Of a stretch of 64,000 nt of DNA, positions 5,262 to 40,824 are shown one piece after another (the first letter of the stretch is position 1; each line of letters opens with the position of its first letter). Under the pieces are notes generated by a model, which was not told the DNA's origin, searched no databases, and saw only the letters and a program-made list of their open reading frames with translations. The stretch is from positions 70,829-134,828 of the forward strand of contig CAVVGU010000002.1 of NCBI GenBank assembly GCA_963747875.1. Direction: 5' to 3'. Position numbers and translations under genes: made by a program. This stretch comes from an uncultured Solirubrobacterales bacterium. Lineage in GTDB: Bacteria; Actinomycetota; Thermoleophilia; Solirubrobacterales; Solirubrobacteraceae.

Positions 5262-5511
5262 CAGTGGGCTGGAGGGTAGATGCCGCGCGCGCCGGCTGCC
5301 CTCTCGGGGCCGTCCGCCCCGGGGCCGTCCTCGATGTTTTTTGGATGAGGACCCCTCCGGGGTCCCCGCGGCGTGCGTGGCCCGCACCCGCGCGGTGCGT
5401 CAGGACTAGCCACGGCACCTGGAGCCATCACCGAAGTCGTGTTATAAACGCCAATCATTACAGGGTCTCCGTAATGACCCAAAATTCGGGCAAGGAGCTC
5501 GGCGCGGGGAC

Positions 5512-6582
5512 TCAGCCCTCCACGATGCCGCCCTGCGCGTGGATCGTGCGCTGCAACTGCTCCCCGCGCAGCGTGAGCCGCCACGCGTTCGGCCCCCCAC
5601 GGCCGACCTCGCCGTCGCCGCCGTTGAGGATCAGCCCCAGGTGCAGCAGGCGCTGCAGCAGCTTCGAGGTCTGGCCCTGGTCCGCGATCCCCGCAGCGTC
5701 ACCCACCTGACGGTTCGACGCCCCCGGCCGCGCGGCGATCGCCAGCAGCACCCGCACCGTACGGTAGGTCAGGCGCATGTCCAGGCCCCTCAGCGGGTCC
5801 TCGCGCACACCGGGCCTCGCCGCCCGGACCTTCGGCGCGGGCCGCGCAAGCTCCCGAGCCGCCGCCGCCGACCCCAGGTAGGGCAGCACGACCATCCCCA
5901 TCAGCGGGCTCGCCAGGCTCGTCAACGGGAGTCCGTTGCGGGCCGGCGCCGCACCGCGCGTCCGCGCACCAGCACGCGTAGGCGCCCCGTCCGAGACCGA
6001 CTCAGAGCCCCGCGCCATCCCCGCGCCCCGCTCGGACAGGCGCGTGTGCAGCACCGCGAGCACCGCGCCGACGACACCCTCTCCCGTCAGCGGCGCCACC
6101 TCCCCGCGTCTGGCTTCCCCGCGGCCCTCCTCGACCACGGCGACGAGCACCCGCACCACCTCCGCACGGCGCTCCAACGCCCGCGGGCCCGCGCCGAGCG
6201 CATGCACCACACAAAGCGCGCCGAGATCGGGCTCCTCGTCGAAGAACCCCAGCAGCGCCACCAGCGCGCCGCGCACCCGCTCGCGCCAGCGCCCCGCGCC
6301 CTCCCACGCAGGCAGCACCCGCGCCGCTGCGCGCTCCACCGCCTGATCGAACGCCGCCAGAAAACACTCCTCGCGGTCCGCGAACAGTTCGTAGAACGTC
6401 CGGCGCGAAACGCCCGCGCGGGCGACAATGTGCGCGACCGTCGCGCCCCCGGCGCCGCGCTCGGCCACCACCTCACAGAGTGCGCCGAGGACCCGCGTGC
6501 GCTGGATCTCATCGACCTGCTCGCGCGCGAAGGAGACACCCTCCTCCCCGACCCGCAGCCGGGTGACGCTTTTCCTCGACAC
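5512..6582 (-). CDS. type R1: dual-HTH regulator (TetR-type N-terminal HTH plus C-terminal MarR-like winged helix)
   Basis: The N-terminus TVAHIVARAGVSRRTFYELFADREECFLAAF is a TetR_N signature. The C-terminus LTYRTVRVLLAIAARPGASNRQVGDAAGIADQGQTSKLLQRLLHLGLI looks like a MarR/ArsR-type wHTH. A Gly/Arg/Ala-rich linker joins them. The GTG start lies 28 nt downstream of the A1 stop. Confidence 0.8.
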   Translation of the reverse strand: MSRKSVTRLRVGEEGVSFAREQVDEIQRTRVLGALCEVVAERGAGGATVAHIVARAGVSRRTFYELFADREECFLAAFDQAVERAAARVLPAWEGAGRWRERVRGALVALLGFFDEEPDLGALCVVHALGAGPRALERRAEVVRVLVAVVEEGRGEARRGEVAPLTGEGVVGAVLAVLHTRLSERGAGMARGSESVSDGAPTRAGARTRGAAPARNGLPLTSLASPLMGMVVLPYLGSAAAARELARPAPKVRAARPGVREDPLRGLDMRLTYRTVRVLLAIAARPGASNRQVGDAAGIADQGQTSKLLQRLLHLGLILNGGDGEVGRGGPNAWRLTLRGEQLQRTIHAQGGIVEG

Positions 6583-6610
6583 GCCGTTGGCGACCCGTGC
6601 GATGGCTCAC

Positions 6611-9547
6611 TCACCCCCCCCGCTTCCCGCGACGGGCACCGGCCTTCCCGCCCTTACCGCGCCTGTGCGCAGCCTTCTTCTTGGACGCCTTCTTTGCCTT
6701 CGGGCAGCCGGTGACCGCGATCTTCGTGCTCTCCCGTATCAGATCCCCGTTCTGCGCAAGGAATTCCGTCGGCATCGCCAGCGCGCCCTTGCAGAGGTTC
6801 CCGTTCGCCGCCAGCGCCGAGTAGGGGCCCTGCGGCAGCGTCAGTTCGAAGCTGCCGATCGGGTCGTCGGGGACCGTGTGAAACGTGCTGCTCGTGATCC
6901 CGGTCTTTTCGTTGATGAACGTTTCCCCGTGCAGGTCGAGTGTCACGCCGTAGCCCTGGAGGACCATCACAAGTTCGGGGAACTTCGCGCCACCGTAGGA
7001 GACGAAGTACGCCGGGCCCGTCAACGGCACGGGCAGGATTGGAGTGGTCGCCGTGGCGTGCCCGACCGCGGAGTCCGCAGGGCACGATGCCGGGTTCGCC
7101 TCGAATGTCGCCGCGAGGCAGGCCTTGCGCAGTGTCGTCAGCCGGGAGGGTAGACGCTTGGGGAGTTCGACTTTGACGAGTTTGATGTTCGTCTGCGTGC
7201 CCTGCGGCGCATCCGGGTACGCCAGGTGCACCGTGAGGCTCGCCCCGTTCGCTTTGCTGGTCTTCCCCGAGCTCGAGACCTTGAACTGGGGTTTGAACTG
7301 CAGGTTCTGGCAGTTCGCCATCTGGAAGGAGTTCGTGACCGTCGCGAAATCCTGGTCGGCTGGGTTCGCCGGTTCGGCGCCCCCACCACCGACGGTCGCG
7401 GCGAAGCTCTCGGGGTCGCAGTTGGTCGGGTTGATCATGAAGTTCGGCCGGTCGATGTAGACGCGGATGTCACGGACATGGATCACGATCCCGTCGATGA
7501 TGTGCGGGATCGGGTCGGACGCTTTCGCGTCGACCGTCACAATCGCGGTTTCGGGGTTGATGACCAGCGCCTCCCTGACGACGACCGTCCCGAGGTCGAA
7601 CGGGCCGACCTTCGCGCTCGTGATCGCGACGATCGAGAACGGCGCACCGTTGTACGGGCCCGCCATGTAGACCTTCCCCGGCGTGTAGGCGAGCACCGAG
7701 CCGACCCCGGCGCCGACGAGGGAGTGCCCGATTTCGCTCGCCGCGGGACACGACGGTTCGGCCTCCTCCTGCGCCCCGCTCACGTGCTTGGCCGCTTCGA
7801 TGTCCGCGTCCGGGCAGAACGGGACCCCGGTCAGTTTCGCGGTCAACCCGGCGGGTAGGATCGAAGTGAACCTGGTGATCTCCTGTTCGCCGTCGTTGCG
7901 GGTGATGCGGATATCCATCGGGCTGTACGCTCCGGCGCTGTTATTCAACGTGCCAGCGACGATCCCCGGATGAAACGGCGGGACGCCACCCGCCGGGCAG
8001 GGGCCGCCGCCGATCCCGTTTTCGATCTGGAAGGAGCTCAGCAGGTGGCGCGCTTCAAGCGGCGCCGACCACGGCGAGAGCTCCGCTTCGGTCGTGTACG
8101 TCCCGCACGCCGCCGGGCTGATCAGCGGCGAGGCCGCTCCCTGGCGCAGCTTCAGCGTGAACTTGCTGAACGGGACCTGCGGGCTTTCATCGAACGTCGT
8201 GACGAGCTGGCCGGTCACGGGGTTCGGTTCGATATGCCCCTGCAGCCTGACGACGATCCCGCGGAACGGGTCCTTCACGACGACATACAGCGCGAGCAGC
8301 GACCCGAACTTATTATCGAACGGCGTCGCGATATAGATGTTGCCCGTCAGCTTTTCCGCGAGCACCGGTGTTTCCACTTCCACGGTGCCGATCTTCGATT
8401 CCGCCGGACAACCAGTGCCGGGCAGCGAGGAGAAGGTTTCCGCTTCAAGCTGCTGTGGCGTGCATGTGCCGAGACCGACGGCCAGCGAGGGGTTGGCGGT
8501 GTAGCCCACGGGCAGCACGACCGTTGTGTCCTTCAGGTTCGACGCCGCCACCACTTCCGGGAACGCCCAGTTCTGCGGCACCACAAGCGAGATGTTCAGG
8601 CCGCTTGAGGATTCCGCCGAGCCGGTCGTGGGCGCGACTTCGATCGATGGGTGAAACGGGACGCGTTCGCATTCCACGATCGGACCGACCTGGGTTTCAG
8701 CTTCGGAGTAGCGCCCCGGTTCCTCCCACGAGTCGGCCCGCATCCTCGCGGTGAACGGGCCACAGCTCGTCGGGTTCGCCAGAAACGGCAGGTGCGGGAT
8801 ATCGACCGCGTTTCCGCCCCCGAAGCATTCCACGGTTTCGCTGCTAGTCGTCGTCTGGCAGACCAGTCCGCGTTCGGCGTCGTGCACGTGCGAGGCGGGA
8901 ATGCCCCATGTCGTGACTGAGATTTCGTGGGGTTCGGTGAGCGAAGCGATATCGGGGGCTGTGACCGTCAGCCCGGAGTCCCCCGGGCGGACCGTGATCG
9001 GCAGCACCTGGACAAACCCGAGTGCCTTGAAGCCGAGCTCGGCCACGATCCCGGGCGAATTGACTTCCATGTTATACACCGGGAAGATCATCCTCACGGG
9101 GTGCTTGGTCCCGAACGTCAGAGCCAGCGCGATCGTCCCAACCTGCGTATCCGGCGGACAGCTCGAAGTCCCCGAGCCCCCACCACCAGACGCCACAGCA
9201 GTCAGCAGCGCAGACGTGCACGTTGGTAGGGCGGTGTTATTGCCAACAAAGCCGGCGGGCAGTTCGACGATCGTTTCACGGACGTCGCCCAACGGCTTAC
9301 CCAGCGCGTCATGCGTGAAATTGAAGGCGACCGTGAGATCCTCATTGGCGCCCGCCTGGCTCGTCGAGGTGCTCACGTGAAAGCTTCCCGGTTCTATTTC
9401 GAATGGCTGTTCGCTCGGCGCCGCCGCTGCCGATCCCACGAACAGAAGGCCCACCACAAGCGCAAGCATCGCAAACATACCCATGCGCCACCTGCCAGCA
9501 CCGACGCGCGCCACCCCAGCCCGATACCTGCCGTCAAGGGCGATCAT
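6611..9547 (-). CDS. type A1: large secreted Cys-motif repeat protein with polybasic C-terminal tail (unknown family)
   Basis: 978-codon ORF with a signal-peptide-like MGMFAMLALVVGLLFVGSAAAAP. It has four modules, each with C-x(9-23)-C-P-x(4)-[IV]-G (CPPDTQVG, CPAESKIG, CPAASEIG, CPADSAVG). It ends in VTGCPK plus a K/R tail finishing KRGG. The ATG overlaps the B1 stop (ATGA 9544-9547). Confidence 0.85.
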   Translation of the reverse strand: MIALDGRYRAGVARVGAGRWRMGMFAMLALVVGLLFVGSAAAAPSEQPFEIEPGSFHVSTSTSQAGANEDLTVAFNFTHDALGKPLGDVRETIVELPAGFVGNNTALPTCTSALLTAVASGGGGSGTSSCPPDTQVGTIALALTFGTKHPVRMIFPVYNMEVNSPGIVAELGFKALGFVQVLPITVRPGDSGLTVTAPDIASLTEPHEISVTTWGIPASHVHDAERGLVCQTTTSSETVECFGGGNAVDIPHLPFLANPTSCGPFTARMRADSWEEPGRYSEAETQVGPIVECERVPFHPSIEVAPTTGSAESSSGLNISLVVPQNWAFPEVVAASNLKDTTVVLPVGYTANPSLAVGLGTCTPQQLEAETFSSLPGTGCPAESKIGTVEVETPVLAEKLTGNIYIATPFDNKFGSLLALYVVVKDPFRGIVVRLQGHIEPNPVTGQLVTTFDESPQVPFSKFTLKLRQGAASPLISPAACGTYTTEAELSPWSAPLEARHLLSSFQIENGIGGGPCPAGGVPPFHPGIVAGTLNNSAGAYSPMDIRITRNDGEQEITRFTSILPAGLTAKLTGVPFCPDADIEAAKHVSGAQEEAEPSCPAASEIGHSLVGAGVGSVLAYTPGKVYMAGPYNGAPFSIVAITSAKVGPFDLGTVVVREALVINPETAIVTVDAKASDPIPHIIDGIVIHVRDIRVYIDRPNFMINPTNCDPESFAATVGGGGAEPANPADQDFATVTNSFQMANCQNLQFKPQFKVSSSGKTSKANGASLTVHLAYPDAPQGTQTNIKLVKVELPKRLPSRLTTLRKACLAATFEANPASCPADSAVGHATATTPILPVPLTGPAYFVSYGGAKFPELVMVLQGYGVTLDLHGETFINEKTGITSSTFHTVPDDPIGSFELTLPQGPYSALAANGNLCKGALAMPTEFLAQNGDLIRESTKIAVTGCPKAKKASKKKAAHRRGKGGKAGARRGKRGG

Positions 9548-12500
9548 TTCGCACCTCCCGGCCGCCGCACAGACCGTTTCACGCCGGCAGCCTTCCTTCG
9601 TCTCTTGACGGCGCGCCTCTGCCTCTGCTGCTTCTTCCTTTTCTTCGTTTTCGGCGTCGCCTTCTTGATCGTCTCACTGGATTCTGGGGCGCTGGCCACG
9701 ACGTCTCCGGCGCCCTGGAAGCTCGCGCTCGACGGCGTCAGATCGTTCGGGGCCACGAACGGCACCGCGCAGGAATCCCCTTCGCATTCCACCGCAGCAG
9801 GCGGCGGCGGCGGGAAGCCGCCATCGATCCGCGCGTCATAGACATCACCTGCCGTGTCCGTATCCTGGGGAACAAGCGATTCGTGGGTCGCAAAGAACAC
9901 GTCCCGGCCCGACGGACTCGCACCGACCAACTCGCTCAGATAACCACCGCCCCGGCCACCGGATATCAGCGCGAGACAGCCCTCCACAGCCGCACAGCCA
10001 TCGACACCCTCACGGCGCCACTCATACACATCGCTCGACCTCGACCGGAAGAATTCTTCAGGTTCGGCGCCAGGTTCGGTGGAAGGGCCTATTTCGCCGT
10101 CGCTGTCCTGCGGCACCAGAGCGTCCGGTGTTTCAAAGAAGACGAAGTCGCCGTTTTCCGACGCGAACACCTGACTCGGCGTGCCGTCGAAGCCATAGAT
10201 CGCATAGAGGGCGGTGGAGGCGAACCTCGGCCGCGGGTCGAATGGCGATGCGCACGAAATACACTCAATGACGTTTTCGCTGCTGTCGTAACGATAGATC
10301 TGCTTGCCCACTTCGTCTCGACCGAGGCCGCCGGGGACGCCGGGAAAGCCTCCCGAAGTTCCTTCGAAAACAAGGTAGCGCCCGTCGGCGCTCACGTTCA
10401 CTATTTCACTGAAATATAGGGGAACGTAGTGAAGGGTTTTGCTTGACACATCATACCGGTAAAGCGCTGACTGGCCTGTCCCAGCCTGACCTTCGGGCGT
10501 CAGGGCCGCTTGAGTCGAAATGTAGATCGTCGAAAAATCGGCTGAGACCTTGACGAAGAACTGTCCTGGCACAGTGAAGAGGTGTTCAGCCGTTTGCGTC
10601 CCGGTGTCATACAGGAAGGCTTCGTGAGCCCCTCCGTTGACGTGTTCGAGCAGGAGCGAGCTGCCCTGGGAATTCGCGGCCAGAAACTTGTATTCGCCGA
10701 TGTCGACGGTTTCCACACCATTGACGCGCTCATAAAGATGCGTCTGCGGTCCGCCGTTTTCCAGTTCGCTTTCAAGTTGTTCATGTGCGGGGCATTGACT
10801 GCCCGACACAGCGTAAAAGAAGACACGGGCGCCATCGGACGAGACGGAGTGCGCGCTGCTCGTCGGCGCACCGCCACCGCGCGGACGGATCGCGAGCCCT
10901 TCGATGCCCCGCGTCATCGCGGCACCACACGTACCGATCGGCGCACCCGGGGTCCCACTCTGCACATTGACCTGGCGCAACTGTCCTTCGGAGTATTCGT
11001 AGAGATCGTTCCCGCTCTTGGTCGCACTCACGTGCCCGGGCACCAGCGCACGATCTTCGGTGCCGATGATCAGCTTGCCTAGATCGGGGGACGCCGCAAC
11101 CAGGAGCGGATTGGAGGTCACGTACTTTCTCGGGATCGACGCGATCGACAGGTAGGGACCAGCGGGAGGACCGACCTGGAGCTCGACCGTCGGCGATGCG
11201 GACACTGGACTATCGTCCCATCCGACCTGCATACCGGCTTCGGTCAGGTCCGGATTGAACACCACCGGAACATAGGAGTCGATCGCGGCCTGCGGCTGCG
11301 GAGTCGCGGAGGTCATCTGCCACCCTCCGGATGTCCGCGAGAAGAAGTAGTTCGACTTGCTGGCGTCAGGACTCGACCCCCACTGCGTGCCCGGCGCATG
11401 CAACATGAAATGTTCACCATCTTCACTCACGCGAAATTCATCGGTGATACCAATGCCTGTATCCGTGTCCTGCGCTCCGTTCTTTTCGGCGGGCGTGACC
11501 TGCTCATAGGCACGACAGTCCGGCAACGCAGCCGACGGGCCAATGCGGAGCGCTTCATTGGGACAGCCTTCGCTCACACCTACCTCCGGCAAGACCGGCA
11601 CCGTCAAGGTCTGCTCACCGCTGTGAACACCCTGCGGGGCGGCTTCGTTGCTTGCAATCAGCCGGTAGCGGTAGGTGACGCCAGGCTGAAGTTCGGGGAG
11701 ATCCCCACCTGCGCCGACGTAAGCGTAGCCCGAGCCCGCATCCATTTCGGAGGTGGTGGCAGCCCCGGCAAACCCCTGTTCTTCGAAATGCTGCTGCGAT
11801 ACGTATTCAAAATGGTAGTGCGAATCGGCGCCGTGGGGGTCGACAGCCCCCAGCGCCACCATATCTTCGCCGCTCACAGAGTGCACCGCATACGTGGTGG
11901 CGGTGGGCGGCCCCGCCGTTTCAAAGCTCTTTACAGGCGAGGTGGCGCCCTTATGAACACCAGGTGCCGGTTCGGATTCTGCGAAGAGCCGGACATAGTA
12001 GGTGGTGGCAGGACTCAGGCCACTGAGATCCCCCGAGACAGAACTAAAGCCCGCTTCGTTTTCTTCCCCCGCAGGAGTGGTGCCACTCACTCCGGGCGCG
12101 ACATGGAATTCTCCATTTTCGCTGTTCGCGTATTCGAACTGCCAGTGGACTTCCTCGCCGTGAGGCTTGAAGAAGCCCTTCAATTCAGCAGCAGTTCCCT
12201 TGATGCCAGTAAATTCTTGTACCCTGACAAAGGTCGGATAAAACGGCACGGCTTCACAACGATAATCCCGCTTTTCGCCCGTAGATTCTTCGGTTTCGAA
12301 CGGGGCCGTTCTGGTGCCCGAGGCGTTGGTGGCAGTCAGACGCACGTAGTAGACAACTTCAGCTGTCAGTCCCGCAAACGTGGCAGCAAGAGGCACGTCC
12401 ATCGGATGGGCTTCCATTTCGGCCTGGGTCACCGTGCCGCTGGCGCCCGGAACCAGCGTCCAGGGACCGGCTTCGCTACCGGCATATTCAAAGGCCCAGC

Positions 12501-13705: not shown

Positions 13706-13862
13706 AGAACCTCCTCGACGGTCGTGTTAAGACATAGGGCCGCCCTCCCCCCGGGGAGGCCGGCAGATACCCGCCCGCGCGCGGGCAGCAGAAGACCGCC
13801 GCGGGCACGCGCCCCGCGGCGGTCGCAGAAAAGGGGGCCTCAGCGGCTAGCTGAGGCGCACA

Positions 13863-14627: not shown

Positions 14628-14633
14628 GCTTAC

Positions 14634-31774: not shown

Positions 31775-34645
31775 TCACCCTCTCCGCTTCCCATCGCGAG
31801 CACTGGCCTTCCTGCCCCTCTTGCGCTTGTGCGTGGCCCTCTTCGCCTTGGCCTTGTGCTTGGGGCAGCCCGTGACCGCGATCTTCATGCTCTGGCGGAT
31901 CTCCGCGCCGTTCTGCGCGAGGAATTCCGTCGGCATCGACAACGCCTTGCCGGTGCAGAGGTTGCGGTTCGCCGCGAGTGCGGAGAACGGCCCCTGGGGC
32001 AGCGTCAATTCGAACGTGCCGACCGGGACGTCCGGGACGGTCTTGAACGTGCTGCTCGTAATCCCCGTCTTTTCGTCGATGAACGTCGATCCGACGAGGT
32101 CGACGGTGATGCCGTAGCCCTGCAGCACAATGATCAGGCTCGGGAACGCTTCCCCGCCGTGGGAGACGAAGTACGCCGGCCCCGTGAGCGGCACCGGCAC
32201 GATCGGCGTGCTCGCGACCGCGTGCCCGACGATCGACTCCGCGGGGCAGTCCGCCGGGTTCGCTTCGAACGTCGCCGCGACGCACGCCTTGCGCAGCGTC
32301 GTCAACCGCGAGGGCAGCGCCTTGGGGAGTTCGACTTTGACCTTCGCGATGTTCGCCTGGGTGCCGAGCACGCCCGGAACGGTGAGCTTCACGCTGAGGC
32401 TCGCCCCGTTCGCTCTACTCGTCTTCCCCGCCGTGGAGACCTTGAACCCGGGTTTGAACGCGAGGCTCGAGCAGTCCGCGGCCTGAAACGGCGCAGTCGC
32501 ACCAACCGGAACCTGGTCGGCGGGGTTCGCGGGGTCCGCGCCGGCGCCGCTGATCGTCTCGGAGATCGACATCGGGTCACAGTTCGTGGGGTTCAGAATG
32601 AACTTTTCGCGGTCCACGTACACCCGGATTTCGCGGACATGCACGACGATCCCGTCGATGATGTGCGGGATCGGATCCGAGCCGTTCGCGCTGACTTCGA
32701 CCTGCGCGGTGCTCGGGTTGATGTGCAGCGCGAAGCGAATCACGACGGTCCCCAGATCGAACGGGCCGACCTTCGCGCTCGTGACCGACACAAGCGACAG
32801 CGCCGAGCCGTTGTAGGGCCCGGCGAGGTAAAGCTTGCCGGGAGTCTGCGCGAGCACCGTGCCGACGCCGGCGCTGACGATCGTGTGTCCGATTTCGCTC
32901 GCGGCGGGACACGAGGGGTTTTCGATCTCCTGCTGGCCGGTAGCCGTGCGGGCGGCTTCGATGTCCGCCTCGGAGCAGAACGGGATCCCCGAGAGGTTCC
33001 CCGACAGACCCGGCGGCAGCACAGTCGTGAACCGCGTGATCTCCTGTTCACCGTCCTGGCGCAGGATCCGCAGGTAGAGCGGGCTGTAGGAGCCGGCATC
33101 GTTGTTCTGCGTCCCCGAAATCACCTGCGGATCGAACGGCGGGACGCCGCCCGCGGGGCAGGATCCTTCATGCACACCCTGCGTCACTTCGAAGGCGCTC
33201 TGCACCAGCCGTGGTTCGGTCGGCGCGGACCACGGCGTCAGTGCCGCCAGCGTCGTGTACGTCCCGCACGCCGGCGGGGAGACCAGCGGCGCGGTCGCAC
33301 CCGGACGGAACTTCAGGGTGAAGCGGCTGAACGGCTGTTGGGGATTGTCGTCGAACGTAGTCGTGAGCTGTCCGGTAACCGGGTTCGGTTCGATCTTGCC
33401 GGCGACTTTGACGAGGATCCCGCGCGCGGGATCCTTCGCGACGACATACAGCACGAGCAGAGAATCGAAGGGGTTCTCGTAGGGCTTGGCGACGTAGATC
33501 GCCCCAGGGATCTTTTCCGCGAGGACCGGCGTTTCGATTTCGATCGAGCCGATCTTCGATTCCGCCGGGCACCCTTCGCCGGGCAGCGAGGAACTCGTTT
33601 CCGCGGCGTACTGTGCCGGCGTGCAGGCCGCCAGCCCCGAACCCGCCGACGGATTGACCGTGACGCCTTCCGGCAATGTCACTGTCGCGTCCTTCAGGTT
33701 CGCCGTCGCGAGCGTTTCTGGATTTTCCCAGGTCTGCGAGACCACCAGCGAGACATCCATCCCGGTGGGAGATTCCGCGGAGCGCGTCGAGGGCTGCACT
33801 TCGATCGCGGGGTCGAAGTGCAACCGTTCGCAGCCCGCGATCGGGCCCGTTTCGCTCTCGCCTTCGCTCCATGCTTCCGGCGTCTCCCACGAGTCGGCCT
33901 CCATCGTCGGGGTGAACACGCCGCAGCTCGTCGGGTTCGACAGGAACGGCTTCACCGGGACGGTGACCTGCTCATCGCCCAGGATGCACTCTTCCCTGCC
34001 GCTCCCGACGACTTCTTCGCAGATACGGCCACGCTGAGCGTCGTGCGCCGGGGAGTCCGGGACACCCCATACGGTGACCGACACGGCGTGTGGTTCGGCG
34101 GCTTTTTCGACTGGGCTCGCGATGCTCAGGCCCTCATCGCCGGGGCGGACGTGCACGATCAGAGTCCCGGTGATCAGAAACTTGTAGCCGAGCTCCGCCG
34201 TCACTCCGAAGCTCGTCGTTTCCAAGTTGAAGAGCGGAGTCGTCGCCTTCAGCAACTCGCCCGACGGCGCCGTCAGCGTGAACGTGATCTGGCCGACCTG
34301 GCTCGCCGGCGGGCATTCCGGTTCTGTGACGGTCGTGCCGAGCAGTTCCGCCTCCGTGCAGGTCGGCACGGCCGTGTTGTTCGCCGTGAACCCGGCGGGC
34401 AGGTTGACCACCACTTCTCGCAGATCGTCGTTCGTCTGCCCCCTGGCGTTGTGGGCTAAGTCGAACTCAGTCGTGAGGTCCTCGTGCGCACCGGCCTGCG
34501 CGGTCGAGGAGAGCACGTGAAAGCTGCCGGGGATCACTTCGAAGGGCTCTTCAGGTGTGGGCTTGGCCCAGGCCCCGGCCGGCCACGGACCGCCCACCGC
34601 CACGCACACACCGACCACGAACAGCGCAATTGATCTGAGTCTCAT
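31775..34645 (-). CDS. type A4: large secreted Cys-motif repeat protein with polybasic tail
   Basis: The start is set at ATG 34645 (MRLRSIALFVVGVCVAVGGPWPAGAWA), overlapping the B4 stop as ATGA 34642-34645. PFEVIPGSFHV matches the A1 pattern. The protein ends VTGCPKHKAKAKRATHKRKRGRKASARDGKRRG. The track ORF extension to 35419 is an out-of-frame read through the 3' end of B4. Confidence 0.85.
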   Translation of the reverse strand: MRLRSIALFVVGVCVAVGGPWPAGAWAKPTPEEPFEVIPGSFHVLSSTAQAGAHEDLTTEFDLAHNARGQTNDDLREVVVNLPAGFTANNTAVPTCTEAELLGTTVTEPECPPASQVGQITFTLTAPSGELLKATTPLFNLETTSFGVTAELGYKFLITGTLIVHVRPGDEGLSIASPVEKAAEPHAVSVTVWGVPDSPAHDAQRGRICEEVVGSGREECILGDEQVTVPVKPFLSNPTSCGVFTPTMEADSWETPEAWSEGESETGPIAGCERLHFDPAIEVQPSTRSAESPTGMDVSLVVSQTWENPETLATANLKDATVTLPEGVTVNPSAGSGLAACTPAQYAAETSSSLPGEGCPAESKIGSIEIETPVLAEKIPGAIYVAKPYENPFDSLLVLYVVAKDPARGILVKVAGKIEPNPVTGQLTTTFDDNPQQPFSRFTLKFRPGATAPLVSPPACGTYTTLAALTPWSAPTEPRLVQSAFEVTQGVHEGSCPAGGVPPFDPQVISGTQNNDAGSYSPLYLRILRQDGEQEITRFTTVLPPGLSGNLSGIPFCSEADIEAARTATGQQEIENPSCPAASEIGHTIVSAGVGTVLAQTPGKLYLAGPYNGSALSLVSVTSAKVGPFDLGTVVIRFALHINPSTAQVEVSANGSDPIPHIIDGIVVHVREIRVYVDREKFILNPTNCDPMSISETISGAGADPANPADQVPVGATAPFQAADCSSLAFKPGFKVSTAGKTSRANGASLSVKLTVPGVLGTQANIAKVKVELPKALPSRLTTLRKACVAATFEANPADCPAESIVGHAVASTPIVPVPLTGPAYFVSHGGEAFPSLIIVLQGYGITVDLVGSTFIDEKTGITSSTFKTVPDVPVGTFELTLPQGPFSALAANRNLCTGKALSMPTEFLAQNGAEIRQSMKIAVTGCPKHKAKAKRATHKRKRGRKASARDGKRRG

Positions 34646-37600
34646 CGCCCGCTCCTTCCCGAACCGACACCTCGCCGCCCTGCGGCGGCCCGCACCGCAC
34701 CATTCGCTCCGCGGCCTGCCGGCGCTTTGCGTCGTCGCGCCCTGCGCCCCCGCTTCGCTCTCGGCCGTTTCGATTTGGGCCTGTGCTTCACCTTCTTCGT
34801 CTTTGCCGCTCTCGGCGCTGCCAGCGCGGGCGATGTGAGATCGCCCGCACCGGAGAACGTGAAGCTCGCGGGCGTCGCGTCGACCGGCGGGCTCGCCGGC
34901 GTCGAGCATGCATCCCCTTCGCATTCGACCGGACGCGCCGCTTCCGGGAACCCGCCGTCGATCCGCACGTCGTAGATATCGCCCGCGCTGTCTTGATCGG
35001 AGGGCACGAGCTGGGAGTCCGTCTCGATGAACACGTCCCGACCCGACGCGTCTGTCCCCAGCAGCAGGTTCGCGACGCCGCCGGTGCCGGGCGTGATCAG
35101 GCTCAGGCAGCCCTCGACGCGGGTGCACCCGTCGAGCCCGGCGCGCCGCCACTCGTAGATATCGCTCGACAGCGAGACGGTGGTGCTGTTGTGTTTTCCC
35201 GTCCCCCCAAGACTCGATTCGGGTTCGATTTCGCCGTCGACGTCTTCGGGCACGAGCGCCGCCGGTGTCGTGAAGAACACGTAGTCGCCGCCCGCGGAGA
35301 CGAATTTCGTCCGTGGGAGACCGTCGATCGCCGGCTCGATTCCCCCAAACCCGTCGGGTTCGGGGAACGTGGCCAGCAGCCGCGGTTCCGGGTCGAACGG
35401 CGACGCGCACGAGATGCACTCCAGCGCTTTTTCGACGCTGTCGTACCGCAGGATCTGCGGCACCAGATCCTGCTTGGTCCCGAAGACAGCGGCGAAGTTC
35501 GCCACCGGGCTGATGTAGTTCAACGCGTTCCAGTTGAGGTAGGGAGTGAGTTCCGCCGGGACGCCGTAGGAGTAGCGTCTGGCGATCCCGACCTGTTCCT
35601 CCGCGATTGCCACCTCGGCTTCGGAGGCGAGGCGAGCTACGGCTCCCCGTTGCGGTTCATAGAGGAAATCTCCGTCGGTACTGTCTTGCACCAGCACCTT
35701 AGAGCCGGCGCTGTCCGCGGCGACGAACTTGTACGCGCCGATATCGACCGTTTCCGCACCGTTCACCCGCATGAAGAGGTGCGAGGCCCCACCGCAGCTT
35801 TCCCCGGGGACCGCTTCGAAGAAGACACGCGACCCATCCGCGGAGACAGCATGATGATCGTACTCTTCGCGGCCGCCTTCTCCGTCGATGCTGTAGAAAT
35901 TTCGGACTGCCTGGCCTTCGGGAAGCACCGCACCGCACCGCCCGACGCCGACGTTGACCTGCCGCAGCTGCCCCCCCGAGTATTCATAGAGATCAAAGCC
36001 GCTCACGGTACTCGTCTGCGGCTCGACGAGCCTGCGATCTTCGACCATCAGGATCAGCTTGGAGAAATCTTCGGAGGCGCCGACCCAGCCTCCATCTTGA
36101 CCCAACTCGTTGCGCGGGACGACCGCGACGGTCGCATACGGCCCTCCGGCGGGACCGACCCTGAATTCGATGTTCGCCGACTGGCCGCCCTGGGCCTGGT
36201 TGAGGTTCACTTCCGAGCGCAGCCCGAACTGCGTGAGATCTGGGCTGTACACTTCGGGAAGGTATCTGCTGACACCCGCTTCGGGCTCCGGCGTACCGGG
36301 AGTCAGCTGCCAGCCGGAGGAGCCACGAGCGAAGAAGTACGGCGCCTGACCGGTAAGGCCCCAGTTCGTAAACGGCGCCTGCTCCATCACGTGTTCGCCG
36401 TCTTCTCCGATCATCGCACCGCCGTTCGTGCTGGTGCCGTACGAGAAGAGTTCCTCGGCGCCGCGCTTCTGCGTCGGTGTGATCTGCTCGTACGCCCGGC
36501 AATCCGGCAGGTGACTGGAGAGGCTGCCGCGGAAGCGTCCGTTGGGGCACGGTTGCGCGGGCGCCGCGGGCGCCACCACAGGCACCCTCAGGCTCTCAGC
36601 TTCGCCGTAGGCGACATGCTGCCCGCCGCTTTCGCCTTCGCCGGTCGCTACCGCGCGGAAGCGGTATTCCACCCCCGGCTGCAGGCTGGGCAGATCCGCG
36701 CCGACGACGCACGGGCTCCCCTGGCATTTGGAGGGCGCGAGCTCAGGGGTGACCGACGCCCCCGCGAACCCTTTGGCCGCGAAGCGTTCGGCGGTGACGT
36801 ATTCGAAGTGGTAGTCGGTCGGACGGCCGTGGCTGTAGATCAGGCCGAGGGCCCGCATCGCTTCCCCATCGACGACGTGCGTCGCGAATGTGCTCGCACT
36901 CGGCGGGCCCTCCGTTTCAAAGGAGCGGATGCCCGTGGCGGTGCCTTCGGGCCTGGAGGGGCCAAACACATTTTCAGCGCTCGTCCGGAAGTAGTAGACG
37001 GAGTCGGGACTCAGCCCGGTGATCTCAGCGAGCGGAAAATGATGGCGTTCGTCGGCTTCCGCGGCCGCAATCACGCCTTCAGAGCCCGGGACCACCGTCC
37101 ACGGGCCGCCTTCGGACCGCGCGACTTCGAAGCGATAGTGCGTTTCACTGCTGTGCGGCGCGATGTTCCCCAAGAGACGCGCAGATGTTTCCGTAACCGC
37201 TTCGGTTTTATCGCCGCTGGCGAAGGGGTAGAGTGGTGCGGTTGTGAATGAAAGCGGTTCTGTGCTGAATTCGCCCTGTTCGTTCCTGGTAAGGATGCGG
37301 ATATAGTATTGCCGTTCAGGAGCGAGACCGGTTATATGCGCGGCGACTCGAACGGAATCTTCGACTGCAGTGACTACGCCTTCGGCCCCATGCACGGGCG
37401 TCCATGGGCCACCTGCCGATTCAGCCGTTTCGAAGACATAGTGGGTTTCAGCCCCGTTGGTCTGAATACCTGGTGTTGGGCCGCCGGTTTCGAAGTCCGC
37501 ATAGTCGGTCCCGATCGCGTTATCTTCTCCGCTCAGCCTAACGCCGCCGGGGACTTCGGGCGCTGCCACAGGGTGTGTGGTGAATTGGAGATTTGCTTCG

Positions 37601-37989
37601 GCGAAGCCCTTCGACCCCTGGGCCTGGATGCGGGCGAAGTAGTGGGTGTCGGGGACGAGATGCTGAATCAAGACGGCACCAGGTGATTCTCCACAGCAAT
37701 TCAGCCCGTGGGCCACGAGCACGCCCGTTCCGTTGTCGAGGGCAGCTTCGGTGGTGGCGTATTCCACCTTCCAGGTTGTGGCCGGAGGTGCCCCTTCCTC
37801 GCCGTAAGCGATCTCATTGGTGGCGAGGATGACCCGGGTGGAGAAGGGCCCTTCCGCAACTGCGAAGCCCCTGACTTCAAGTGAAGCGGCGGCCGCTGTC
37901 GCAGCGCCGCAGGCAAGACAGAGTAACAGCACGATCGGAAGAGTCATCGACGGTTTCTGAGCACTGCGTTTGATGCTGTTCACTGTCAT
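34642..37989 (-). CDS. type B4: secreted Fn3-like repeats plus PD40-like beta-propeller protein with polybasic tail
   Basis: The start is set at ATG 37989 (MTVNSIKRSAQKPSMTLPIVLLLCLACGAATAAAA). Fn3-like units carry THYFARIQA, RQYYIRILT and SVYYFRTSA. CPNGRFRGSLSSHLPDCRAYEQITP follows, then propeller blades. The C-terminus is ECEGDAC...FTFSGAGDL plus a K/R tail of about 50 aa. Confidence 0.85.
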   Translation of the reverse strand: MTVNSIKRSAQKPSMTLPIVLLLCLACGAATAAAASLEVRGFAVAEGPFSTRVILATNEIAYGEEGAPPATTWKVEYATTEAALDNGTGVLVAHGLNCCGESPGAVLIQHLVPDTHYFARIQAQGSKGFAEANLQFTTHPVAAPEVPGGVRLSGEDNAIGTDYADFETGGPTPGIQTNGAETHYVFETAESAGGPWTPVHGAEGVVTAVEDSVRVAAHITGLAPERQYYIRILTRNEQGEFSTEPLSFTTAPLYPFASGDKTEAVTETSARLLGNIAPHSSETHYRFEVARSEGGPWTVVPGSEGVIAAAEADERHHFPLAEITGLSPDSVYYFRTSAENVFGPSRPEGTATGIRSFETEGPPSASTFATHVVDGEAMRALGLIYSHGRPTDYHFEYVTAERFAAKGFAGASVTPELAPSKCQGSPCVVGADLPSLQPGVEYRFRAVATGEGESGGQHVAYGEAESLRVPVVAPAAPAQPCPNGRFRGSLSSHLPDCRAYEQITPTQKRGAEELFSYGTSTNGGAMIGEDGEHVMEQAPFTNWGLTGQAPYFFARGSSGWQLTPGTPEPEAGVSRYLPEVYSPDLTQFGLRSEVNLNQAQGGQSANIEFRVGPAGGPYATVAVVPRNELGQDGGWVGASEDFSKLILMVEDRRLVEPQTSTVSGFDLYEYSGGQLRQVNVGVGRCGAVLPEGQAVRNFYSIDGEGGREEYDHHAVSADGSRVFFEAVPGESCGGASHLFMRVNGAETVDIGAYKFVAADSAGSKVLVQDSTDGDFLYEPQRGAVARLASEAEVAIAEEQVGIARRYSYGVPAELTPYLNWNALNYISPVANFAAVFGTKQDLVPQILRYDSVEKALECISCASPFDPEPRLLATFPEPDGFGGIEPAIDGLPRTKFVSAGGDYVFFTTPAALVPEDVDGEIEPESSLGGTGKHNSTTVSLSSDIYEWRRAGLDGCTRVEGCLSLITPGTGGVANLLLGTDASGRDVFIETDSQLVPSDQDSAGDIYDVRIDGGFPEAARPVECEGDACSTPASPPVDATPASFTFSGAGDLTSPALAAPRAAKTKKVKHRPKSKRPRAKRGRRARRRKAPAGRGANGAVRAAAGRRGVGSGRSGR

Positions 37990-38144: not shown

Positions 38145-38864
38145 TTATTCAGCGGTCACCGCCCAGGTACCATACGCGAGGCCGCCGCTTTCTTCAAAAG
38201 GTGATAGGAGCCCGGCCCCGGTCGTGCCAGCGCCCAATTCGCCACCCAACAGCGGCGGCTCCGCATTGGGTGAGAAGATCTCGAACGCTTCCTTGAGGCC
38301 GCTCGCGAGCTTGGCGTACACACAGAGATTCCCTTCCTCGGCCTGCGGTTCGGCAACACTGCCCGGACACGCCGCCGGCGGAGCGGCGGCCCCGGGTTCG
38401 ACGTAGTGCACCTGCGGGGCGCCCAGCGCTTCGGCGAGCGGGATGTCGAAGGAGATCGCGGCCATCCCGAAGGGGTCCTTTTCAGAGGCCCGCATGATCC
38501 ACGCGCCCGTCTCGGTGGCCCCCTTGGGCAGGGTCTTGGTGAAGCCCGTCGTGCCGTTTTTGCCGTTTTCTCCGTTTTTGCCCGCTGGCCCCTGTGGGCC
38601 CACGGCGCCGGTTTCGCCCTTCCCACCGGCCGGTCCCTGCGGACCAGCGGGACCAGCGGGCCCCGCCGGACCCTGGGCGCCGCCCGTCCCCGCCTTGCCC
38701 TTCAGCTGCGCGAGCACGCTCGGCTTGATCTGCTTCGTCGAGGTGATCACGTACCGGCTCGCGGCATACGCCCCTCCGCTCATTGCGAACACCAGCGCAA
38801 GCGTGGCGATCACCGTCGCGGGACTAACATGGACGCGCCTACGTATCCCTGAGAACATCAGCAC
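38145..38864 (-). CDS. type C2: secreted collagen-like (GXY repeat) protein
   Basis: The N-terminus matches C1 ([10 protein letters not shown]..., [18 protein letters not shown]). About 18 G-X-Y triplets ([54 protein letters not shown]) are encoded at about 38538-38699. The C-terminal domain is paralogous to that of C1. Confidence 0.85.
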
Positions 38865-39022
38865 AGAACCTCCTCGACGGTCGTGTTGAAGACATAAGGC
38901 CGCCCTCCCCCCAGGGAGGCCGGCGAATACCCGCCCGCGCGCGGGCAGCAGAAGACCGCCGCGGGCACGCGCCCCGCGACGGTCGCAGAAAAGGGAGCCT
39001 CAGCGGTTAGCCAAGGCACACA

Positions 39023-39044
39023 AGAGAGAGAGAGAGAGAGAGAG
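39023..39044. repeat. (AG)11 / (CT)11 microsatellite in leader copy 3
   Basis: Counted directly as 11 AG units. Confidence 0.9.
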
Positions 39045-39280
39045 ATGCGGCAGGCTGCTGCCGCATCTAGCTACGCCCCCCTGATGGGGCGCGAGAACTC
39101 TCATCACGTCTGTCCCTCCAGAACTCACGCGTAAACAACTCCCTCGAGCAATTCGACCCAGGCTCCCTCTCCCAAGGGCTCCCATTTAGCGCTTCAGCGG
39201 GCCGGCCAAGAGGGCTCGGACCCAAACCTGATCTATGTTGAAAAACACCCGGCGACCCAAAAGACCACCGTGTGTTGCCC

Positions 39281-39310
39281 ATCATATACACGTTCGTAGG
39301 CCCGCGTCAA
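39281..39310 (-). promoter_or_regulatory. near-consensus promoter TTGACG-18 nt-TATGAT (minus strand), copy 3
   Basis: On the plus strand, atcata lies at 39281-39286 and cgtcaa at 39305-39310. Confidence 0.5.
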
Positions 39311-39390: not shown

Positions 39391-39405
39391 CTGCGTGCCC
39401 CCAAC

Positions 39406-39744
39406 ATGTACCGAGAAACCCGCATGAGCCGCCGTAGCGCAGAGCGCCCGGTGGCGATCCACGACCTGCTCGGCACCGAGACCGCGGCCGAGAAGCTCGA
39501 TGCGCGCGGGATCTCAGTCGAGGAAGCCCAGCAACTCATTGACAACCGCTACAGGATCCTTCCCAACAAGGGACGTGCCCGCCACGGGCGCCGCAAGCTC
39601 CGAGCGCGACGGCTGCTGATCGGCAACACCGACGGCGGGCGCACCCTCACCGTAGTCATTGAACGTACCAATGACCCCACCACCTGGCTGATCGTCACCG
39701 GATGGACCGCGACAGACAATCAGCGTAGAATCCTCGAGGACTGA
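39406..39744 (+). CDS. putative type II toxin, BrnT/DUF497-like (tentative)
   Basis: A small basic protein. The pattern ...RGISVEEAQQLI... LLIGNTDGGRTLTVVIERTNDPTTWLIVTGWTATDNQRR resembles the BrnT fold pattern (..IG....GR.L.VV......IIS.R.A...E). A small acidic ORF follows 4 nt downstream, giving the toxin-first order of brnTA. This is a weak, memory-based match. Confidence 0.4.
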   Translation: MYRETRMSRRSAERPVAIHDLLGTETAAEKLDARGISVEEAQQLIDNRYRILPNKGRARHGRRKLRARRLLIGNTDGGRTLTVVIERTNDPTTWLIVTGWTATDNQRRILED

Positions 39745-39747
39745 ACA

Positions 39748-39990
39748 ATGACCAAGGATCCCTGGACAGACCCAGACCCCCAGCCCGAGGACTTCGACGA
39801 CTTCTTCTCGTCGTTGGATCCGAGTGAGATTCAGGTAGTCGAGGCGGGTTCCGGCGCTAAGGTCACAATCGTCTCAGAGGCCACTGGCGAGGAAGCCAAG
39901 CGCCTGGAACGCCTCGCGCTCGAATCCGACCCTCCCCTCTACGACGTCCTCGCCGACCTCCGCCGCGCCGCGAAGCGCAACGCAGCCTAG
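39748..39990 (+). CDS. putative cognate antitoxin (small acidic protein)
   Basis: An 80-aa protein with an acidic N-terminus and a helical C-terminus (EEAKRLERLALESD...LADLRRAAKR), tightly coupled to the upstream ORF. The call rests on context only. Confidence 0.35.
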   Translation: MTKDPWTDPDPQPEDFDDFFSSLDPSEIQVVEAGSGAKVTIVSEATGEEAKRLERLALESDPPLYDVLADLRRAAKRNAA

Positions 39991-40694
39991 TGGCCACCAC
40001 ACCCTCACAGGAGCAGCCCGTCTTCCTGATCACCGGCGCCTCGACTGGGATCGGAGCGGCGACCGCGCGCCTCGCCGCGCAGGACGGTTACCGGCTGGTG
40101 CTGGCGGCTCGCTCTGAGAACCGTCTGCAGGAGCTCGCCGCCGAGCTGGGCGGCCCTGAGCGCGCGCTGGCCATCCCCTGCGACGTGACCGAGTGGGAGC
40201 AGCAGGAGCAGATGGTGACGCGGGCGCTGGGGGCCTTCGGGCGCATCGACGTGGCGTTCGCGAACGCCGGCTTCGGCGCGACGCGGGGCTTTCTCAACGA
40301 GACGCCCGAGCACTGGCGCGAGATGGTGCTCACCAATGTGTACGGGGCGGCGCTGACCCTGCGCGCCACGATCCCCGCGCTCACCGAGTCCCGCGGACAC
40401 CTGCTGCTGACCTCGAGCGTCGCCGGGCGTCGCGTGCTCCCCGGCTCGCTGTACTCGTGCACCAAGCACGCCGTCACCGCGATGGGCGAGGCCGTGCGCC
40501 AGGAGCTGCACGGCAGCGGCATCCGCGTCACCGTGATCGAGCCCGGCATGACCGACACCCCCTTCTTCGAGAACCGCCCCACCAACCCCCTCGAGGCCGA
40601 GGACATCGCCCGTGGTGTCCTCTACGCCGTCTCCCAGCCCGCGCACGTCAACGTCAACGAGATCCTGATCCGCCCCACCGCGCAGCAGGGGTGA
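39990..40694 (+). CDS. short-chain dehydrogenase/reductase (SDR)
   Basis: Contains TGASTGIG (the TGxxxGxG Rossmann motif), NAG, and the YxxxK region (YSCTKHAV). The GTG start shares base 39990 with the TAG stop of the upstream ORF. Confidence 0.85.
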   Translation: MATTPSQEQPVFLITGASTGIGAATARLAAQDGYRLVLAARSENRLQELAAELGGPERALAIPCDVTEWEQQEQMVTRALGAFGRIDVAFANAGFGATRGFLNETPEHWREMVLTNVYGAALTLRATIPALTESRGHLLLTSSVAGRRVLPGSLYSCTKHAVTAMGEAVRQELHGSGIRVTVIEPGMTDTPFFENRPTNPLEAEDIARGVLYAVSQPAHVNVNEILIRPTAQQG

Positions 40695-40751
40695 GCAGGT
40701 CCATCACCAGATCCGCCCGACGGCGCCGGGCCGTCGCGACCAGTCCGGGAC

Positions 40752-40785
40752 GAGCGTACCGTCCCAAGTCCGGCGTAGCCTGAGC
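40752..40785. repeat. right copy of the ~30-nt imperfect direct repeat bracketing the TA-SDR module
   Basis: See 39358-39390. It lies in the convergent spacer between the SDR stop (40694) and the obg stop (40825). Confidence 0.7.
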
Positions 40786-40824
40786 TCTACCCGGCTGACG
40801 CAAACAGGCCACCCCGCAGTGCAC

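Follow-up and report, generated by a model that had tools for sequence, protein, structure and literature searches.

A variable array of unnamed paralogous operons splits the obg-proB housekeeping block of an uncultured Solirubrobacterales bacterium

How a conserved block of housekeeping genes comes to be split by a long stretch of accessory DNA is the question raised by contig CAVVGU010000002.1 of an uncultured Solirubrobacterales bacterium, of which 64,000 nucleotides were analysed (the window, meaning here this whole stretch; G+C approximately 70% overall). In the window about 35.5 kb separate the stop of obg (40825) from the start of proB (5261) and thereby divide the series rne-rplU-rpmA-obg / proB-proA-nadD-rsfS. 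A first-pass annotation, made from the sequence alone, had proposed these borders and these flanking genes, and both are upheld by Pfam and tblastn. Between obg and proB are found four gene cassettes on the minus strand and, on the plus strand, a pair of small genes and the gene of a short-chain dehydrogenase (SDR). Our reading, to which we give a probability of roughly 70%, is that the cassettes form an array of tandem paralogous operons in a permissive hotspot, and do not represent a site-specifically integrated element.

The state of the locus in the lineage was determined on 80 proB-centred loci onto which the window proteins were mapped, 73 of which show the obg 3' end together with proB. 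In a search of 185,579 species genomes the best matches of the window proB are all Solirubrobacterales, at 65-88% identity. The distance between obg and proB is less than 300 bp in 52 of the 73 loci and 300-1000 bp in seven; three loci (L002, L005 and L007) have essentially only the SDR gene in the gap, one of them together with a small extra gene pair; ten carry more than 1 kb of unrelated cargo, and two (L006 and L034) a single cassette. At L008 and L014 cassette arrays continue past the end of the 10-kb flank that was fetched, and L002, L003, L005, L007, L009-L013 and L016 are cassette-free at the site. In the two closest genomes, L001 and L004, the SDR gene lies directly against proB, with other genes on its far side. 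The majority state in the lineage is thus obg next to proB, or obg-SDR-proB, and the adjacency that had been stated for Mycobacterium tuberculosis is borne out by the published order, in which obg sits between proB and rpmA (PMC3056739). The same 35 kb is not carried by the close relatives, whose sites are empty, hold one cassette or have different content. The closest soil metagenome contig found (L157; rpmA 100%, SDR 92% and rne 89% identity) reads obg-SDR and continues with a leader, the element which precedes the cassettes, and with a B gene that reaches no more than 32% identity to those of the window. As L157 differs at the same site, the content of the array varies even among close relatives.

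Other cargo in the gap of relatives includes a PhD antitoxin, a TacA-GNAT pair, a DUF5615/PIN-DUF433 pair, an HTH-AbiEii pair and an AAA ATPase. From this variety of cargo it follows that the obg-proB gap is a hotspot of accessory genes in this order. Two further kinds of protein in the gap may be recorded here, a polymorphic-toxin-like RHS-repeat protein of 1538 amino acids (L079, 3974-8590), and membrane proteins of 717-727 amino acids with a holin-like domain of four transmembrane segments and a type I phosphodiesterase domain (L018, 3581-5734; L022, 3473-5656).

The comparison also moves the border of what has to be explained. The inserted DNA had been described as a toxin-antitoxin (TA)-like pair, the SDR gene and four cassettes; the cassettes stand, but the SDR gene has to be removed, since L002, L005 and L007 read obg-SDR-proB, which places the gene in the backbone of the near clade. 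It lies between rpmA and obg in 23 genomes that are more distant (L015, L025, L030 and L041 among them); it always neighbours obg on the opposite strand, and its change of position is a small local rearrangement of the backbone. The TA-like label of the two small genes agrees with their order, but the only toxin match is below threshold (BrnT_toxin, 23.1 bits with a cut-off of 34.5; DUF4258, 23.1 bits with a cut-off of 25; E 1e-4). The pair has no match in NCBIfam, PADLOC or PHROG, and its 80-residue partner matches no family of Pfam or NCBIfam; a BrnT-like toxin with its antitoxin is possible. Short remnants of both small genes are retained beside the SDR gene in L004, and the pair for this reason probably pre-dates the array. 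Nucleotide alignment with the empty-site genome L002 breaks from 5290 to 39997, and on the proB side blastn homology with empty-site relatives restarts at approximately 5282-5313. The truly variable block therefore spans approximately 5290-39320 (about 34 kb), or reaches 39997 if the small pair is counted.

In the direction of transcription, from high to low coordinates, the array has the order leader 4-C4-B4-A4-R4, leader 3-B3-A3-R3, B2-A2-R2', leader 1-C1-B1-A1-R1, followed by proB (Table 1). Cassettes 1 and 4 are of one type (type I) and cassettes 2 and 3 of another (type II). The start of A overlaps the stop of B as ATGA in three of the four cassettes, and GGAGGA stands between them in the fourth; this arrangement suggests translational coupling and a stoichiometric B-A pair. 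By its sequence R2' is a pseudogene, the remnant of a deletion, and R3 is probably defective. Among 128 instances of the leader the first gene downstream is R in 72, B in 29 and C in eight, which gives leader-R-(C)-B-A as the canonical order; the arrays linked to proB are permuted and end in R.

R, of about 350 amino acids, carries a TetR-type helix-turn-helix (HTH) at its N-terminus and, beyond a linker of low complexity, a MarR-like winged helix at its C-terminus. The TetR HTH (PF00440) scores 37.5 bits, above the cut-off of 24, and TetR-family structures are matched in the PDB, while no NCBIfam equivalog is reached at its cut-off. The C proteins (239-265 amino acids) have a hydrophobic N-terminal transmembrane or signal helix, a stalk of GXY repeats and a C-terminal beta-sandwich head; PF01391 is matched at 34.5 and 31.6 bits, above its cut-off of 27.2, and NCBIfam gives weak matches to SclA, SclB and Lcl through the GXY repeats (26 bits against cut-offs of 400). 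The C1 head is modelled by AlphaFold 2 (AF2) with a predicted local distance difference test (pLDDT) above 90. A Foldseek search with the C1 model returned nothing below E 0.3 and no significant fold match in the PDB, C1q/TNF-like heads included, and neither C1 nor C4 contains LPXTG. The B proteins (1060-1280 amino acids) have a signal-like N-terminus, FN3-like domains, a Cys-rich end and a Lys/Arg-rich tail. Those of type II carry an NHL beta-propeller, to which B3 adds a PD40-type repeat; a second propeller may be present in the other B proteins as well. The PDB sequence search with B1 was empty. The A proteins, of approximately 960-1100 amino acids, have a signal-like N-terminus and a basic tail and no sequence match in Pfam, NCBIfam, PHROG, PADLOC or the PDB (the latter searched with A1). 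The AlphaFold model of A1 (pLDDT 75) is a chain of beta-sandwich domains, for which Foldseek retrieves only generic Ig-like arrays (integrin legs, complement MG domains and MSCRAMMs) with TM scores of at most 0.2. The signal-like N-termini, the NHL, FN3, PD40 and Collagen domains and the all-beta model of A indicate that A, B and C are probably large secreted proteins of the cell envelope, and we infer a role of the cassette products at the cell surface.

A profile built from the four A proteins finds at least 1317 homologues, all of them annotated as hypothetical and none with a Pfam domain. The named sources are all Solirubrobacteraceae, and one contig of 4.29 Mb carries at least nine A homologues. 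For C at least 2873 homologues are found. No description of the family or of its leader was found in the literature. On these comparisons the cassette family is large, multi-copy, dispersed, unnamed and specific to Solirubrobacterales. An orthologue of cassette 1 (C 84% and A 84% identity) occupies another locus in a relative, where a ParA/FtsZ-like pair, R-C-B-A and PhD-PIN follow one another, and in L081 two cassettes with a PIN-PhD pair between them are found after ftsH-folP.

Two observations on these surroundings stand on their own. Directly upstream of the cassette 1 orthologue (L202, 5865-8202, on a contig of 1.64 Mb) lie the genes of a ParA-like ATPase and of a second FtsZ/tubulin-like protein, which look like an unusual chromosomal partition-like pair. 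Small TA-like genes are strikingly frequent upstream of leaders (in many of L083-L198 by sequence inspection, confirmed by Pfam in L081 and L202), and the array of the window, beside its TA-like pair, is placed likewise. The modules near cassettes include PIN-PhD, AbrB-PIN, RHH-PIN (ribbon-helix-helix with PIN), MazF-like and HTH-nucleotidyltransferase types (L081, 13000-13746; L202, 17467-18080), and such neighbours may stabilise variable loci or simply mark hotspots.

Base composition would be a reason to regard the block as a classical mobile island, an integrative element or prophage remnant that entered at an attachment site between obg and proB. G+C is 0.60-0.69 within the block versus 0.70-0.75 outside, and G+C at third codon positions (GC3) of the A, B and C genes is 0.75-0.83 versus 0.83-0.95 in the flanks (for genes kept by the gene caller; B1 is under its cut-off). 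The lowered GC3 is, however, a trait of the cassette family in every genome examined, for example in L006, and the R genes have a host-like GC3, so that low GC3 is not a sign of foreign origin. The patchy presence, in only a few of the 80 relatives, and the TA-like pair at one edge would also suit an island, but the cassettes are paralogues of a chromosomal multi-copy family, and no integrase, transposase, tRNA, phage or conjugation gene is found. The absence of integrase, transposase and tRNA at the edges had already been claimed, and it was confirmed by classification of the open reading frames (ORFs) of at least 100 amino acids, by ARAGORN and by Rfam. No recombinase is among the classified ORFs of this size and no unassigned space exceeds about 550 bp; as the R, A, B and C genes and the leaders fill the stretch, there is no room for an integrase or transposase. 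A search for direct repeats at the edges of the array found none. Insertion as such an island thus appears highly improbable.

Other candidates of this kind were tried and rejected. PADLOC matched no protein of the island to a known defence system, and PHROGs matched only collagen GXY repeats to phage fibre proteins, besides a marginal FN3 hit, which does not speak for a prophage. ARAGORN calls a tRNA-His at 41115-41181 (minus strand), which lies inside a Gly/Ala-rich linker of obg for which alignment to relatives fails; Rfam supports no tRNA at this place and reports no family at gathering thresholds anywhere in the window. The call is most likely a false positive and cannot serve as attachment site of an island.

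The divergence between cassettes is very unevenly distributed. The B pairs are 25-45% identical with a synonymous divergence (dS) of about 0.9-2.2. Between A2 and A3 dS decreases from 5' to 3', from 1.33 over the first quarter to 0.36 over the last, with amino acid identity increasing from 46% to 94%. The R pairs are 88-90% identical (dS about 0.4-0.5) regardless of the type of cassette, and the leaders of the window are 95-97% identical to each other. Hypervariable cores (dS above 1) bracketed by conserved segments (the leader, the 3' end of A, and R; dS about 0.4) are a signature of gene conversion or recombination. We infer that the array likely arose by homologous recombination through the conserved segments of the cassettes. 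Its site is the interval from the end of the rne-rplU-rpmA-obg operon to the promoter of proB. The homology arms would be the leader at one end of each core and, at the other, the 3' end of A together with R; unequal crossing-over through these arms would permit gain, loss and exchange of cassettes without a recombinase of their own.

As to the order of events, A2 and A3 are mutually closest (70-72% identity), followed by the proB-adjacent A genes of L006, L008, L014 and L034. A1 and A4 are 62% identical to each other and have their closest relatives in other genomes (P0003 at 91% for A1, P0006 at 76% for A4). Because A2 and A3 group with proB-adjacent A genes while A1 and A4 are closer to other genomes, the type II cassettes are probably long-term residents of the site which were duplicated in place, and those of type I would have been added later on both sides.

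The residents raise the question whether the array, or its type II core, is ancestral to the clade, the empty sites being the product of repeated deletions. R, A and B are found directly upstream of proB in L006, L008 and L014 (proB 83-84% identical) and in L034 (71%), the A genes of these loci group with A2 and A3, and R2' and R3 show that decay is ongoing. The junctions between R and proB are not the same, however (the junction measures 48 bp in L006, about 140 bp in L008, where it includes a hairpin, and 250 bp in the window), the cassette 1 orthologue is found at another locus in a relative, the content of L157 differs at the same site, and obg and proB are adjacent in 52 of 73 genomes across the order. 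An array ancestral as a whole is thus unlikely, and we consider this account to be true in part, for the type II residents only.

The third explanation is technical, namely that an assembler misjoined dispersed paralogous cassettes between obg and proB. This would be permitted by repeats that reach 97% identity over about 380 bp, and 85-90% over the R genes, and by the depth of the leader region in soil runs. We consider it scarcely credible, for the independent assemblies of L006, L008, L014, L034 and L157 share the R-proB and SDR-leader junctions, positions 39897-41081 are covered, at one mismatch, by a Logan contig of run X1, and the cores (25-72% identity) are too divergent for collapsed or chimeric copies. 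The contigs of the soil runs confirm the presence of the organism there. In these contigs (runs X1 and X2) the leader with the 5' region of C (38574-39275) has 5-7 times the depth of adjoining unique sequence, which fits many near-identical leader copies per genome or community.

Some points tell against tandem paralogous operons in a hotspot as we read them here. Most members of the family elsewhere have the order leader-R-(C)-B-A, of which the A-then-R order of the window is a variant, and in Foldseek neither A nor the C head has significant structural relatives. The near clade may have inherited some of the array from its ancestor, without an insertion, and the differences between genomes may reflect losses as well as gains. 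An error of assembly or of reads could affect the 95-97% identical repeats, and also the difference between (TC)10 and (TC)11 described below, and the window is perhaps metagenome-assembled.

The leader is a conserved element of about 300 nucleotides found upstream of C1, B3 and C4 and also in L006, L008, L034 and L081, at 67-76% identity. Scanned for its pattern, the JGI metagenomes gave at least 120 stretches from soil and peat; these were pooled with the leaders of the window and of the earlier relative loci to 112 unique full-length leaders, eight identical duplicates being collapsed. A near-consensus sigma-70-type promoter (TTGACG-N18-TATGAT) is present in 106 of the 112. It is followed by about 115 nucleotides with a conserved hairpin and then by the invariant blocks GGGAGAGGG and GAGGGAG. 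The latter is the Shine-Dalgarno (SD) sequence; in 109 of 110 copies it precedes an invariant GTG by 9-12 nucleotides. The conserved hairpin GATGCG..CGCATC directly precedes a perfect (TC)n repeat, of exactly 11 units in 92 of the 112 leaders. Rfam has no family for the leader at gathering thresholds, and a search to E 10 gave only chance-level matches (E of at least 0.97).

The frame that begins at the GTG runs without a stop to the end of the repeat in 110 of 110 copies, compared with 6-11 of 112 for the other two frames. Differences in length mostly keep the phase, which is shared by 99 of the 110 copies and is retained also across a difference of 24 nucleotides in L034. The resulting upstream ORF (uORF) would encode a peptide of 35-54 residues ending in ..ARCASLALSHLSLSLSL.., and the codons of its repeat would alternate between CUC, which is common (31% of Leu codons here), and the rare UCU (4% of Ser codons). 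In copy 1 the uORF stop lies inside a terminator-like hairpin (13857-13837). This copy has (TC)10 and its 95-97% identical sisters have (TC)11, a difference which shifts the tail of the uORF and its stop codon. The number of units differs in all four near-identical pairs of leaders, among which a read error is possible, identical duplicates having been collapsed. RNAalifold pairs both GA tracts with (CU)n, and one of these tracts is the SD of the uORF itself.

The leader might instead be a structured non-coding RNA or an element acting at the level of DNA (operators for R, or H-DNA formed by (CT)n) in which the ORF is incidental. A perfect dinucleotide repeat where Leu and Ser each have six codons, variability without codon periodicity, conserved hairpins with some compensatory changes (300-316 GC/AU, 92-120 UA/CG and 301-309 CG/UA), and GA tracts complementary to (CU)n would all agree with this. 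The openness of the GTG frame in 110 of 110 copies, with the other frames closed in about 90%, the phase kept by 99 of 110 copies and the strong SD argue the other way, so that an incidental ORF appears doubtful to us. The two views are also not exclusive, as a translated ORF in a structured leader is what an attenuator looks like. A purely non-coding leader was considered on account of apparent gaps that are not multiples of three, and the distances from GTG to the repeat reversed that view.

We hold with moderate confidence that the leader is translation-coupled, the repeat adding an element that may be tuned by slippage. Transcription would start at the promoter inside the leader, and translation of the putative small ORF would gate expression of the operon; the (CU)n tract would pair with the ribosome-binding site of the uORF, which ends in or before GC hairpins, and slippage of the repeat would retune the leader. 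Against this stand the thin covariation, restricted to a few pairs, and the finding of a canonical hairpin with T-run after the repeat in only 29 of 108 leaders. The variability of the uORF has no codon periodicity, and the peptide itself is perhaps irrelevant; selection would then bear on nucleotide sequence and on an uninterrupted frame, which is what a regulatory uORF, and not a functional peptide, would lead one to expect. From the 112-leader MAFFT alignment RNAalifold recovered only the GA/CU helix and the terminal hairpin, mutual information with average product correction (MI-APC) was dominated by subfamily signal, and a naive scan for compatible pairs was swamped by G-U. A fuller scheme can be offered tentatively. 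A translated uORF with (CUC-UCU)n could slow ribosomes at the rare UCU, pair with its own SD and slip, and could so combine an attenuator with a contingency switch; cells might in this way express different subsets of a dozen surface structures, and the cassettes would be undescribed polymorphic surface operons of soil Solirubrobacterales.

A structure at the start of the leader RNA may be added. A second terminator-like hairpin, CGGTGGTC-TTT-TGGGTCGCCG followed by GGTGTTTTTC, lies at 14111-14091 (minus strand), a few nucleotides after the predicted start of transcription. This first stem of the leader RNA is terminator-like, and the other copies keep the stem with varied sequence.

Table 1. 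Features of the window from rsfS to rne, in order of coordinates. Positions are those of the window; AF2, AlphaFold 2.
Feature	Position	Strand	Basis and remarks
rsfS	1466-1831	minus	Pfam and tblastn
nadD	1828-2487	minus	Pfam and tblastn
proA	2495-3856	minus	Pfam and tblastn
proB (glutamate 5-kinase), right-hand conserved flank	4167-5261	minus	Pfam AA_kinase and PUA; 65-88% identity in 80 relatives
R1-proB spacer	5262-5511	minus	AT-richer unique stretch of about 110 nt with 7-bp inverted repeat, then two GC hairpins
R1, regulator, intact	5512-6582	minus	Pfam TetR_N 2e-9, MarR_2 5e-6; 88-90% identical to R3 and R4
A1 (type I), predicted secreted, all-beta, basic C-terminal tail	6611-9547	minus	ATGA overlap with B1 stop; AF2 pLDDT 75
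B1 (type I), FN3-like repeats and beta-propeller-like C-terminal half	9544-12729	minus	Pfam Pur_ac_phosph_N, fn3; 44% identical to B4
C1, collagen-like	12908-13705	minus	Pfam Collagen 1.7e-8
Leader copy 1	13706-14151	minus	Promoter 14151-14122; SD 13983-13977; uORF 13966-13847 (39 aa); (TC)10 13883-13864
R2', internal fragment of R, both ends deleted	14211-14629	minus	blastn 87% to R4 31058-31496
A2 (type II)	14634-17939	minus	ATGA overlap with B2 stop; 72% identical to A3
B2 (type II), NHL propeller and FN3	17936-21766	minus	Pfam NHL 4e-14, fn3; C-terminal region without Pfam family of its own
R3, full-length homology, 5' end deleted relative to R1	21896-22879	minus	No canonical start codon before 22762
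A3 (type II)	22908-26168	minus	
B3 (type II), NHL, FN3 and PD40	26174-29941	minus	Pfam; PDB NHL matches TRIM71 and Thin, 1e-22
Leader copy 3	30014-30480	minus	Promoter 30480-30451; uORF 30295-30167 (42 aa); (TC)11 30212-30191; 97% identical to copy 1
R4, regulator, intact	30580-31746	minus	Pfam; GTG start at 31746
A4 (type I)	31775-34645	minus	ATGA overlap with B4 stop; 62% identical to A1
B4 (type I), FN3-rich	34642-37947	minus	Pfam fn3 1e-11
C4, collagen-like	38145-38864	minus	Pfam Collagen 1.4e-7; 54% identical to C1
Leader copy 4, left edge of array	38865-39310	minus	Promoter 39310-39281; uORF 39128-39000 (42 aa); (TC)11 39045-39024; 95% identical to copy 1
Small gene pair (112 aa and 80 aa)	39406-39744, 39748-39990	plus	Tight spacing with each other and with SDR
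SDR (short-chain dehydrogenase)	39990-40694	plus	Pfam adh_short 6e-45; near-clade backbone
obg (GTPase), left-hand conserved flank	40825-42426	minus	Pfam GTP1_OBG, MMR_HSR1, DUF1967
rpmA	42467-42727	minus	Pfam and tblastn
rplU	42717-43184	minus	Pfam and tblastn
rne	43194-45470	minus	Pfam and tblastn

Beyond rne, on the obg-side flank, Pfam identifies rodA and PBP2, also on the minus strand. The opposite flank has features of its own upstream of proB. The GC hairpins of the R1-proB spacer are common to the proB upstream regions of relatives, in a comparison with L001, L004, L007, L008 and L034. A conserved hairpin, GACCCC(N4-6)GGGGTC with an A-rich run after it, is found about 60-90 nucleotides upstream of proB in these genomes and in the window (5300-5345, minus strand). 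A promoter-like TACCCT stands just upstream of the ATG of the window proB, and the relatives conserve in this region a block, CATCTACGCTCC, with a -10-like TACGCT 8-13 nucleotides before the ATG. Together these elements may constitute a short-leader or leaderless promoter with an upstream insulator or terminator. The AT-richer 110 nucleotides after R1 were compared as a possible degenerate leader or promoter and gave no match.

Mechanically called ORFs overshoot the starts supported by homology in both genes of this flank (proA 2495-4174, with the ATG at 3856, and proB 4167-5387, with the ATG at 5261), and the roughly 310 bp that separate the two genes carry no coding sequence when relatives are compared; an automatic annotation may start both genes too far upstream. 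The Obg protein of the window has 533 amino acids, compared with 450-490 in relatives. A low-complexity stretch, GGEG/GKRTGGE, is inserted into its N-terminal Obg fold, and a long linker rich in Gly and Ala precedes the C-terminal DUF1967 domain; it is exactly in the insert and the linker that the relatives differ.

Solirubrobacterales are abundant soil actinobacteria with almost no genetics. What the locus reveals is an unnamed gene family with thousands of members, present in at least nine copies on one contig, whose largest conserved protein has no Pfam domain. The family bears the hallmarks of diversifying surface structures and is a candidate for variation of the envelope towards phages, predators or substrates. 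A core housekeeping block could be split without the machinery of mobile elements, if paralogous operons that are dispersed in the genome recombine with one another at a permissive junction. The leader is a compact candidate regulatory device absent from Rfam, in which a promoter, an SD, an ORF of 40 codons and (TC)11 are combined. For annotation the lesson is that a tRNA call at such a locus can be spurious, as that of tRNA-His most likely is, and that a gene inside the gap, such as SDR, can belong to the backbone and not to the island. New here are the huge unnamed operon family and the undescribed leader with a (CUC-UCU)n uORF; the type of variable locus is itself known.

Several known systems resemble parts of the array. 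R shares with the TetR and MarR families a TetR_N HTH and a MarR_2-like winged helix, and differs from them in that both DNA-binding domains are fused in one protein. Bacterial collagen-like surface proteins include BclA of the exosporium filaments of Bacillus, Scl1 and Scl2 of Streptococcus and Lcl of Legionella. C1 and C4 likewise have an N-terminal anchor or signal, a GXY stalk and a globular beta-sandwich head, but they score far below the family cut-offs, have neither LPXTG nor a known head fold, and the C gene is always in an operon with B and A.

The leader can be compared with leader-peptide attenuators and regulatory uORFs, as found in the trp, his and leu operons and in the erm and whiB7 leaders. 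In these, as here, a short ORF with a strong SD lies between promoter and operon, a particular run of codons is found near the end of the ORF, and GC hairpins follow or cover the stop. In our case the run of codons is a perfect dinucleotide repeat complementary to the SD of the ORF itself, the genes that would be regulated concern neither amino acid biosynthesis nor resistance, and a canonical terminator is found in a minority of copies. The repeat also recalls the simple-sequence-repeat contingency loci which cause phase variation in Neisseria, Haemophilus and Campylobacter. There too a short tandem repeat occupies a place relevant to expression upstream of surface-protein genes, as is predicted here, and its number varies between near-identical copies, as it seems to do among the leaders, where one unit is sufficient to shift the frame of the uORF tail. 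In distinction to such loci, the length is here held strongly at 11 units, and the repeat is located in an upstream ORF and not in the main gene or in a promoter spacer.

The locus as a whole resembles in its logic the surface loci exchanged by homologous recombination through conserved flanking sequence, such as the pneumococcal cps locus between dexB and aliA and the O-antigen clusters between galF and gnd. As in these, accessory genes for predicted surface structures are fixed between housekeeping genes, their content varies, no integrase is present, and conserved segments bracket hypervariable cores. The unit in the obg-proB gap is, however, an operon complete in itself, which brings its own promoter, leader and regulator and is found both in tandem and dispersed; its products are uncharacterised proteins and not enzymes of polysaccharide synthesis, and the segments which would serve as homology arms lie inside the cassettes, in the leader, the A 3' end and R, and not in the housekeeping flanks.

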